Positions 27,765 to 27,813 of a stretch of 63,128 bases of DNA are shown here, one piece after another. The notes below the pieces were generated by a model. It had not been told where the DNA came from. It worked only from the letters and a program-made list of their open reading frames with translations, and did no database searches. A program made the translations under genes and the position numbers. The DNA comes from an uncultured Lachnospiraceae bacterium. GTDB taxonomy: Bacteria; Bacillota; Clostridia; Lachnospirales; Lachnospiraceae. Within the stretch, counting starts at the first letter, position 1. Every line of letters begins with the position of its first letter. Where the stretch lies: the NCBI GenBank assembly GCA_951800365.1, contig CATOJW010000019.1:1-63128 (forward strand), read 5' to 3'.

Positions 27765-27813
27765 CAGATTTCGGAACAGCAGTACCCAACCGTTCCGAAA
27801 TCTGGCGTCCCCC
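27765..27813. repeat. Mini hairpin element with B-type termini (cagccagatttcggaac ... gttccgaaatctggcgtcc)
   Basis: 49-nt perfect hairpin in the ATPase-MVP intergenic region sharing the CAGCCAGAT...ATCTGGCGTCC ends of the B elements. Confidence 0.7.

Follow-up and report, generated by a model that had tools for sequence, protein, structure and literature searches.

In Proteobacteria, much work has been devoted to repetitive extragenic palindromic (REP) sequences, REP doublets forming hairpins (REPINs) and Correia elements, and their movement and their role in the host are debated. To our knowledge, comparable systems have hardly been described in gut Firmicutes. A REP measures a few tens of nucleotides (nt) and a REPIN about 100 nt; the stem of a REP is recognized by its structure and has the conserved tetranucleotide GTAG at its 5' foot, and the gene of the transposase in such a system is typically flanked by the repeats. 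HUH-type transposases handle both REP/REPIN elements and the ends of the insertion sequences (ISs) IS200/IS605 by the shape of a folded stem together with the sequence of its tip; IS200/IS605 elements move as single strands by "peel and paste" transposition, in which no duplication arises, a hairpin shape and a few foot bases are read, and the ends are asymmetric. MITEs (miniature inverted-repeat transposable elements) are defined with target-site duplications, TA in the case of the Correia elements. The Correia/NEMIS elements of Neisseria are intergenic MITEs and form co-transcribed hairpins able to affect termination or RNA stability, and we know of no transposase for them. The REPIN literature describes a single-copy enzyme, the REP-associated tyrosine transposase (RAYT), acting in trans (PMC3337134, PMC3116915, bioRxiv 10.1101/2022.05.22.493013). 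Here we analyze a stretch of 63,128 nt from an uncultured Lachnospiraceae bacterium (contig CATOJW010000019.1; hereafter the window), in which the motif GGACGCC probably constitutes the conserved 5' tip of foldback (hairpin) repeats, non-coding and non-autonomous, that belong to one superfamily.

Motif Frequency and Element Boundary

GGACGCC occurs 21 times on the two strands of the window, compared with 2.05 expected copies, and none of 100 shuffles reached 21. A first-pass annotation, made from the sequence alone, had described the motif as a terminus common to several repeat families; the motif is real, and its count above expectation is borne out. Seventeen of the 21 copies are associated with elements and the other four (at 435, 16732, 30668 and 44879) lie within open reading frames (ORFs) at about the chance level, indicating that the enrichment is due wholly to the elements. 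With all copies set in one orientation, most of them extend to GGACGCCAGA, and the extended families are few. The information content is at most 0.7 bits upstream, reaches 2 bits across GGACGC and drops after position 10, and the sharp rise at the first G of GGAC marks a true element boundary. The motif holds the same structural position throughout the elements.

Element Design and Families

A profile built from nine window copies was searched against the window and 117 loci of a genome collection (806 kb) and gave 306 matches, 124 of them near full length. The matched loci come nearly all from two uncultured Lachnospiraceae metagenome-assembled genomes (MAGs), CBFFYP01 and CAJUEI01/MGBC128194, beside which the window, which matches ENA contig SRR9205164_58 at 100% identity across 21.8 kb, represents a third genome; the sample of elements covers about a quarter of each genome. 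Pairing of 5' tips with complementary 3' arms yielded 206 elements of 48 to ~334 nt with the design 5'-GGAC-[GC...arm ... arm'...GC]-TGT(T/G)-3'. In these 206 elements the complementarity between the arms extends over at least ~26 nt, and the sequence of the arms is conserved in the first 10 nt only. The elements fall into size classes of ~330 nt (n = 113), 225-275 nt (n = 31), 125-175 nt (n = 38, the "C" type) and 25-125 nt (n = 18, minis), and those in the window sum to ~5.6 kb, or ~9% of its length. Five parts make up a unit: a short leader that is specific to the subfamily, GGAC, a long stem with GC-N-R-R-A / T-Y-Y-N-GC as its constant base, an interior ranging from 0 to ~270 nt, and a tail TGTTTnTT. 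Of the ends GGACGCC...GGCGTCC that the first-pass annotation ascribed to all families, the 5' tip is general, but single elements end in TCT(G/C)GC-TGTT, the perfect inverted tip being present in 6 of 199; the asymmetry of GGAC versus TGTT is seen in 117 of 199.

The same annotation had divided the repeats into types A, B and C and treated them as otherwise unrelated modules. Self-BLAST of a 1-kb spacer (33454-34454) showed "A" (33537-33796) and "B" (34212-33949) to be 80% identical over 265 nt when one of them is inverted, and 11 copies aligned in one orientation gave a single ~330-nt element. These alignments indicate that A and B are the same element in opposite orientations. The interior of "C" has no BLAST similarity to A or B, and it is for this interior only that the description as unrelated holds; the C-type tips, stem base and tail are identical in kind, so that C shares the entire element design rather than a terminus of 7-9 bp.

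No conserved ORF was found inside the elements. Rfam 15, run over the whole window at gathering thresholds, returned only the transfer-messenger RNA (tmRNA), the thiamine pyrophosphate (TPP) riboswitch and two tRNAs, with no family matching the elements, and permissive Rfam searches of the elements gave generic hairpin matches only, far below threshold. A literature search found no mention of the 10-mer in this context, nor of MITEs of Lachnospiraceae. An internal hairpin of 40 nt, T7-GCATACCCTGC-loop-GCAGGATATGC-A6 (window 33700-33739; ~85% arm complementarity), stands at the same position in every full element and is among the best conserved blocks (1.7-1.9 bits). Because a T-run precedes it and an A-run follows it on both strands, this hairpin is not a terminator in either direction.

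Two further features were seen at the outer edges of the elements. A "leader" module, TTAATTAGGCTTTTGGAGAT, is conserved just outside A-type ends (23909-23931, 33455-33477 and 37553-37575); at 23909-23931 and 37553-37575 it directly adjoins a sigma-70-like promoter of the downstream gene, and it might have an insulator or promoter-associated role. The 5' tip is tandemly reiterated two to three times before some elements (13076-13095 in the window; ~150-190 in locus L031, ~3600 in L020 and ~7190 in L024), the repeat being either GGACGTCAAAGGACGCCAGAGGACGCCAGA or an 18-nt unit in three copies, with mostly C-to-T and G-to-A changes in the outer copies. Repeated rounds of insertion and loss of the hairpin may have left these reiterations as footprints.

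Stem Covariation and Constraint on the Tip

The outer stem falls into 10 or more sequence classes that are unrelated to one another; within each class, arm complementarity is 88-96%. Among 199 distinct elements, stem positions 7-24 form Watson-Crick pairs in 86-100% of cases with 3-4 pair types per position, compared with 29-53% at these positions when partners were shuffled, and G.U pairs account for 0-6% per stem position. Positions 1, 2 and 6 are invariant, and positions 4 and 5 covary. In 123 full copies conservation is blocky, with 1.2-1.5 bits per position in the tips, ~0.5 bits in the mid outer stem and up to 1.9 bits in inner blocks. Because the tip is conserved while the adjoining stem has turned over but stays paired in the same copies, the tip is under a sequence constraint of its own. 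The stem is held as pairing only, and the tip by selection on its sequence.

The rarity of G.U pairs suggests that complementarity is kept at the DNA level, as an exact inverted repeat, rather than by covariation of the RNA type. On the GGAC strand of the outer stem, A.C mismatches number 70 and G.U pairs 30, a count that tends in the same direction but is confounded by one fixed position; a strand-specific G.U excess, considered as a sign of selection on RNA, was not seen. The proposal that one recognition system handles the shared terminus gains from the finding that the tip is constrained apart from the stem, and is held back by the failure of our searches to find an enzyme. A single recognition system reading the shared tip is the best reading of the terminus and is partly supported.

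Insertions, Empty Sites and Possible Spread among Genomes

Four relatives were found through orthologues of the 597-amino acid (aa) ATPase of the window, with protein identities of 95, 87, 73 and 64%. The first-pass annotation had placed a mini at 30265-30345, and this proved to be a 68-nt unit (30278-30345) with perfect GGACGCC...GGCGTCC ends, lying in a polA-coaE gap of 100 nt. In all four relatives the two genes are separated by 9-20 nt or overlap; the mini at 30278-30345 represents a ~90-nt insertion between them that is specific to its lineage. The spacer between the genes for a penicillin-binding protein (PBP) and a NUDIX protein measures 33 nt in the closest relative (L124), compared with ~505 nt of elements in the window. 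The orthologous 12-22 kb of the relatives, the closest of which has 80% nucleotide identity, contain no profile matches and no 10-mer tips. Comparison of orthologous regions of the two MAGs showed a composite after a stop codon in one locus (L017) against a spacer of ~70 nt in the other (L015); a both-ends mini is present in L029 and missing in the orthologous L089; and the classic terminator of L016 is swapped for a C-type element in the orthologous L047. These results show that the elements inserted into intergenic DNA, even where genes normally abut.

Identity between the elements of the window and those of the MAG CBFFYP reaches 94%, whereas the sole alignable gene is 67% identical. This contrast, together with the element-free closer relative, suggests spread between genomes, although the data are few. 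Element similarity between genomes (median best match 91%, maximum 94%) was found to resemble that within genomes (88-90%), which suggests horizontal spread or strong constraint. The elements reach hundreds of copies per genome, and the repeats have expanded in a narrow, patchy set of mouse-gut Lachnospiraceae. Viral contigs gave no match to the core pattern, and annotated plasmids and phages gave none to a full B-type element. A stem-agnostic mini pattern returned 14 matches in a metagenome collection, all of them chance matches on high-GC contigs without hairpins.

Terminator Anatomy and the Mini behind the ATPase Gene

The tail T-G-T-T-T-n-T-T is conserved in all families (203 elements), and since it follows the 3' arm in every family, each unit on the GGAC strand consists of a GC-closed hairpin and a U-rich tract. 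Where a same-strand gene lies upstream, the distance from its stop codon to the tip is no more than 40 nt in 57 of 102 cases. Between genes of the same direction, co-orientation with transcription prevails among solo elements by 33:12 (p = 0.0025), paired copies are necessarily 1:1 in orientation, and small forms occupy 22 convergent versus 8 divergent spacers. Pairs extending the helix between tip and tail hold in 76-88% of elements, an extension that covariation cannot test because the tip columns are invariant; extension of the helix into the flanks shows a weak excess only at the flank positions. These patterns support a terminator or 3'-end role that would make insertions tolerable, although the directions of genes and of replication are correlated.

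The smallest form is the mini that the first-pass annotation had noted at 27765-27813. The hairpin is real and spans 27763-27810 on the minus strand, the coding strand for nearly all window genes, where it reads GGACGCCAGATTTCGGAAC-loop-GTTCCGAAATCTGGC followed by TGTTTCTT. It is an 18-bp hairpin with 9 GC pairs and a U-rich tail, TGTTTCTTGG; it begins 20 nt past the stop of the actin-like ATPase gene (27831-29624), and a gene for a major vault protein (MVP)-like product lies ~80-130 nt downstream of it. Among the terminator-like sites of 15 kb, this mini ranks first. Its predicted folding energy is -39.1 kcal/mol (z -6.2) on the minus strand and -25.8 kcal/mol on the plus strand, the minus-strand fold being stronger because G.U pairing lets GGGGGAC anneal to GUUUCUU.

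Pairing and Inventory of Elements in the Window

In each of the 37 pairs formed by adjacent substantial copies, the tails point inward and the 5' tips outward, with no case of any other arrangement. Large forms usually occur as inverted pairs, and every B-type copy in the window is paired with an A-type partner, whether full, mini or collapsed. Given this invariable pairing, the earlier descriptions of A as beginning GGACGCCAG and of B as ending CTGGCGTCC refer to the two outer ends of one composite. The composite measures ~790 bp, has a perfect 10-bp inverted tip and recurs as a unit (33481-34257 versus 44516-43730, 86% identity over 789 nt). Minis, among them those at 13086-13197 and 27763-27810, can be aligned colinearly with the ends of full elements and represent internal deletions; solo tips and collapsed remnants, too, arose by deletion. 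The supposed mini hairpins at 23939-23952 and 17385-17397 are a collapsed remnant and a solo tip, respectively. Nor do minis occupy every junction of the polA-coaE-ATPase-MVP string, as had been proposed, because the junctions between coaE and the ATPase gene and between the MVP-like gene and that of a 370-aa protein are without the motif. The elements of the window are listed in Table I.

Table I. Foldback elements and remnants in the window, in order of position
Feature	Coordinates	Strand	Remarks
C-type element, 151 nt	168-318	-	usual tips and tail, interior unlike A/B
Degenerate C-type	3585-3768	-	tip decayed to GGAAACGCTGAAA; families D12, D13, D19
C-type element, 144 nt	10043-10186	+	
C-type element, 145 nt	10889-11033	-	
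Composite	13086-13622		B-type internal-deletion mini 13086-13197 (+), A-type 13294-13622 (-); 5' tip reiterated 13076-13095
Solo tip GGACGCCAGA	17383-17392	-	without complementary arm; just past TPP riboswitch terminator
Solo 5' arm GGACGCAGGAATCCAAAGAAAGATCC	20016-20041	-	directly outside left end of decayed IS607 copy, not part of the IS
Collapsed remnant	23909-23951	-	tip GGACGCCAGA (23942-23951), 3'-tail fragment and reversed leader module ATCTCCAAAAGCCTAATTAA
Focal mini	27755-27810	-	tip GGAC 27807-27810; stem GCCAGATTTCGGAAC.../...GTTCCGAAATCTGGC 27763-27806; tail TGTTTCTT 27755-27762
Both-ends mini, 68 nt	30278-30345		perfect GGACGCC...GGCGTCC tips; between polA and coaE
Composite	33495-34255		A-type 33495-33823 (+), B-type 33926-34255 (-); tails inward, 5' tips outward
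Composite	37629-38050		A-type mini 37629-37666 (+), B-type 37720-38050 (-)
Composite	43732-44502		B-type 43732-44061 (+), A-type 44175-44502 (-)
Partial, rearranged A/B-type	47253-47495	-	
C-like mini, 91 nt	47673-47763	+	
Pair	50103-50474		collapsed A-type tip 50103-50135 (+), 266-nt B-type 50209-50474 (-)
C-type element, 158 nt	50623-50780	-	start 4 nt past stop codon
Composite	53283-54209		A-type 53283-53612 (+), B-type 53876-54209 (-)
Pair	55808-56290		degenerate A-type 5' end 55808-55860 (+), B-type 55961-56290 (-)
Pair, two further outer-stem classes	59271-60303		59271-59597 (+), 59973-60303 (-)
A-type element	62815-63128	+	truncated at window end

The synteny of the strain-level contig k141_216240 with the window was observed to end exactly at a B outer tip (position 4560 of locus L119, window 34257), beyond which other genes follow. 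This break is either a repeat-mediated rearrangement or an assembly chimera at the repeat.

Target Sites and the IS607-family Transposase of the Window

No target-site duplication of 3-9 bp, at any offset, was found beyond shuffled controls around 203 single elements, and none of 2-8 bp around 46 composites and 3 both-ends minis. As candidate enzymes, a RAYT/Y1 transposase was sought by a regular-expression screen of 1.05 Mb that found none, which is weak negative evidence, and the transposase of the window was examined. Pfam and NCBIfam searches identified the latter as an IS607-family serine transposase at 19251-19928 (NF033518, 178 bits). It belongs to a decayed IS607-family element at 19060-20015 on the minus strand, in which tnpA is intact (225 aa) and tnpB is cut to ~11 codons.

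A tip-like arm lies 113 nt upstream of this tnpA. Close homologues (88-89%) reside in canonical tnpA + tnpB elements, the intact ones with a 406-aa TnpB (OrfB_IS605 and a Cas12f-like TNB domain). Alignment with the related copies placed the left end of the IS at ...TGATAATAAAGAA, and the GGACGC arm of the window lies just outside it; a GGACGC tip is missing from all six related IS607 loci. In IS607 elements, insertion takes place at (G)GG and leaves no target-site duplication; the termini have GG, short subterminal direct repeats are present and terminal inverted repeats are absent (PMC6188088). The first-pass annotation had called for a transposase whose own ends carry GGACGCC; the sole transposase of the window and its intact relatives lack the motif at their ends. 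The IS607 transposase was rejected as the cognate enzyme, the motif lying outside the IS end and being absent from related copies.

Neighboring Genes

The region 19102-27830 looks like an inserted island, which is absent in the 87% relative (L125), where the gene for the actin-like ATPase is directly followed by that for NAPRTase. The island holds the MVP-like protein (MVP_shoulder and Vault_3, 25145-27685), the 370-aa protein, which has no Pfam match, a leucine-rich repeat (LRR)/choline-binding surface protein and the decayed IS607 copy. A bacterial vault-shoulder protein beside an ATPase of the MreB/FtsA fold is an unusual pairing. The LRR/choline-binding gene (20177-23437) contains 66-nt tandem repeats at 20230-20757, and its product varies from 1050 to 1072 aa among >99% identical strains (L118-L121). 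A TPP riboswitch (17446-17556, minus strand) with its own terminator lies upstream of thiamine genes, and a tmRNA (58658-59116, minus strand; tag ANEDLAFAA) adjoins a tRNA-Pro, with the elements at 59271-60303 downstream.

Discussion

The best explanation of these repeats, which we favor with moderate confidence, is that they are REPIN/MITE-like mobile hairpins whose tips are read by a trans-acting enzyme and which are tolerated as terminators. An enzyme acting in trans would move the elements, reading the folded stem by its shape and the tip by its sequence; under such a shape-plus-tip reading, the stem sequence would be free as long as both arms change together, and the tip would stay fixed. 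A co-oriented copy on the transcribed strand would act as an intrinsic terminator or 3'-end protector, and co-oriented copies may persist downstream of genes for this reason. The mini at 27763-27810 would then be a minimal terminator-like unit behind the ATPase gene. We infer a trans-acting, structure-reading enzyme from a stem kept in shape and not in sequence, the fixed foot sequence, the unlike ends (117 of 199) and the lack of duplications.

Several observations weigh against this explanation. No multi-copy ORF was found in 870 kb and no element carries cargo, the matching arms 0.5-7.5 kb apart amounting to two spurious pairings only. A regular expression for HUH...Y found nothing among 2061 frames in 1.05 Mb, this being a crude screen of a partial genome sample, and with the IS607 transposase rejected, no enzyme has been found. 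No two copies in one genome are more than 94% identical, which gives no sign of very recent transposition or of a burst. Half of the large copies, being inner partners of pairs, run antisense to the genes that flank them. The orientation bias could reflect strand-specific insertion or replication direction instead of selection for termination, and both termination and a folded single-strand intermediate are presumed from sequence patterns.

Other origins of the repeats and of their tip were considered. If GGACGCC owed its occurrence to base composition or chance, or were an independent signal (for instance an uptake sequence or a restriction-related site) that lies in repeats incidentally, the bare motif count would be accommodated, and nothing more. 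The motif outside the elements is at chance (four ORF copies versus ~2 expected for the whole window), its position within the structure is constant and it is absent in relatives without elements; this position-specific occurrence already refutes the idea, whose probability is close to nil, and a DNA-uptake-type signal is ruled out by the same chance level. Mobilization by the IS607-family serine transposase (19251-19928) would fit elements that start with GG, often after G-rich flanks, make no duplication and sometimes carry the tip in tandem (cf. PMC6188088), as well as the tip-like arm upstream of tnpA. That arm, however, lies outside the left end of the IS as set by five related tnpA-upstream regions (four intact and two partial IS copies), 0 of 6 related loci have a GGACGC-type tip, and the terminal inverted repeats that dominate these elements are missing from IS607 (PMC6188088). 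Furthermore, the window copy is decayed, and a homologue in an element-rich MAG locus (L013) is just 35% identical and has no such ends, so that a role for this transposase is largely refuted and very improbable. The elements could instead be conventional MITEs, that is, internal-deletion derivatives of a DDE-type IS elsewhere in the genome with terminal inverted repeats starting GGACGCCAGA; this entails an IS bounded by GGACGCCAGA...TCTGGCGTCC. They do have MITE traits, being small (48-334 nt), non-coding and multi-copy with terminal inverted repeats; their size classes fit internal deletions, composites and both-ends minis have the perfect 10-bp inverted tip, and families with unrelated interiors have common ends, as when several MITE families use one transposase. 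The sample, moreover, covers just about a quarter of each genome. Yet there is no target-site duplication at any offset among the 203 single elements and 46 composites, which argues against the refuting case named in the first-pass annotation, in which a cognate IS accounts for every copy as a conventional MITE. Neither an IS nor a multi-copy ORF or cargo copy was found in ~1 Mb with >200 elements, the ends of single elements are systematically unlike (GGAC versus TGTT), and past 10 bp only complementarity is conserved, which is not expected of a sequence-reading DDE transposase. We regard an origin as conventional MITEs as unlikely.

A purely RNA-level account would make the elements long intrinsic terminators or hairpins of 3' untranslated regions, with GGAC as the site of an RNA-binding protein or ribonuclease and local duplication and recombination as the source of copies. 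It draws on the U-rich tail in every family, the standing of the focal mini as the best terminator-like site of its region, the closeness of tips to stop codons, the co-orientation of solo copies (33:12) and the C-type element found in place of a classic terminator at an orthologous site. The helix on the GGAC strand also extends through C-G, A-U, G.U and G.U pairs with the tail, which is impossible on the other strand (-39.1 versus -25.8 kcal/mol); against this, the invariance of the tip pairs places a strand-specific extension beyond a covariation test. G.U pairs remain at 0-6% despite massive compensatory change, unlike RNA covariation, and A.C outnumber G.U 70 to 30 in the outer stem of the GGAC strand. 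Elements of 330 nt and composites of 790 bp far exceed the needs of a terminator, one partner of every pair is antisense, and the new sites (polA/coaE among them) and patchy distribution require mobility rather than local duplication. That RNA-level function is the whole explanation therefore seems doubtful. Of similarly low probability is a self-contained Firmicutes replicator, analogous to REPINs and independent of the known RAYT, IS200 and DDE enzymes, in which mobile terminators, recognized by shape together with a 10-nt tip, are passed horizontally from one Lachnospiraceae genome to another and the ~270-nt interior has a function of its own. Here a DNA-level hairpin process would keep the arms complementary, and the conserved interior (blocks of 1.8-1.9 bits) would be a structured RNA or a protein-binding platform.

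If the elements are indeed mobile hairpins read in trans, the combination of a fixed tip with free but paired stems predicts an enzyme that reads shape plus tip. Its discovery would give a handle on how non-autonomous repeats persist and on terminators delivered as mobile modules; the elements lie immediately downstream of housekeeping genes, polA and coaE among them. Were they only terminators without an enzyme, the result would be useful annotation of an ordinary kind. Many MAG contigs end within these repeats, which makes them relevant to the assembly and annotation of Lachnospiraceae genomes.

Comparison with Known Systems

These intergenic foldback repeats are set apart from described systems because they fail the duplication test for MITEs, no RAYT was found with them and their units exceed the size of REPs; the hairpin repeat family itself is previously undescribed. 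As REPs and REPINs are described in the REPIN literature, they resemble these in being non-coding, non-autonomous intergenic hairpins that form a diverged population of hundreds of copies with no transposase gene inside. By the same sources they resemble REPINs in their palindromic units and in inverted pairs that fold into a larger hairpin, as do 37 of 37 pairs here with A/B cores 80% complementary. GGAC parallels the GTAG of REPs, although the tip sequence differs. In contrast to REPs and REPINs, the dominant units of ~330 nt and composites of ~790 bp are much larger, the host is a Firmicute, a U-rich 3' tail and an interior of ~270 nt are conserved, and a crude screen of ~1 Mb of sampled sequence showed no RAYT/HUH gene.

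With bacterial MITEs and Correia elements, the repeats share a small size, the lack of coding capacity, inverted ends, full-length and internally deleted classes and an intergenic location. They differ from both in making no target-site duplications, and from MITEs, whose inverted repeats are conserved in sequence, in that this conservation is limited to 10 nt and the rest of the arms covaries. The absence of duplication and the asymmetric ends recall IS200/IS605, and strand-specific behavior of that kind would fit the 33:12 bias; however, IS200/IS605 elements have two separate small subterminal hairpins in place of an element-wide foldback, no TnpA (Y1) gene was seen here, and a fixed tetranucleotide target is not evident, the flanks being just G/A-rich. 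Integron attC sites have the consensus RYYYAAC/GTTRRRY; inspection ruled them out, the ends here being unlike it and the flanking genes housekeeping ones. Finally, like intrinsic terminators, the elements have a GC-closed stem with an immediate U-rich tract, lie from a few to 40 nt past stop codons and are co-oriented when solo, but ordinary terminators share no 10-nt tip, stay below 330 nt and are not gained as discrete insertions.

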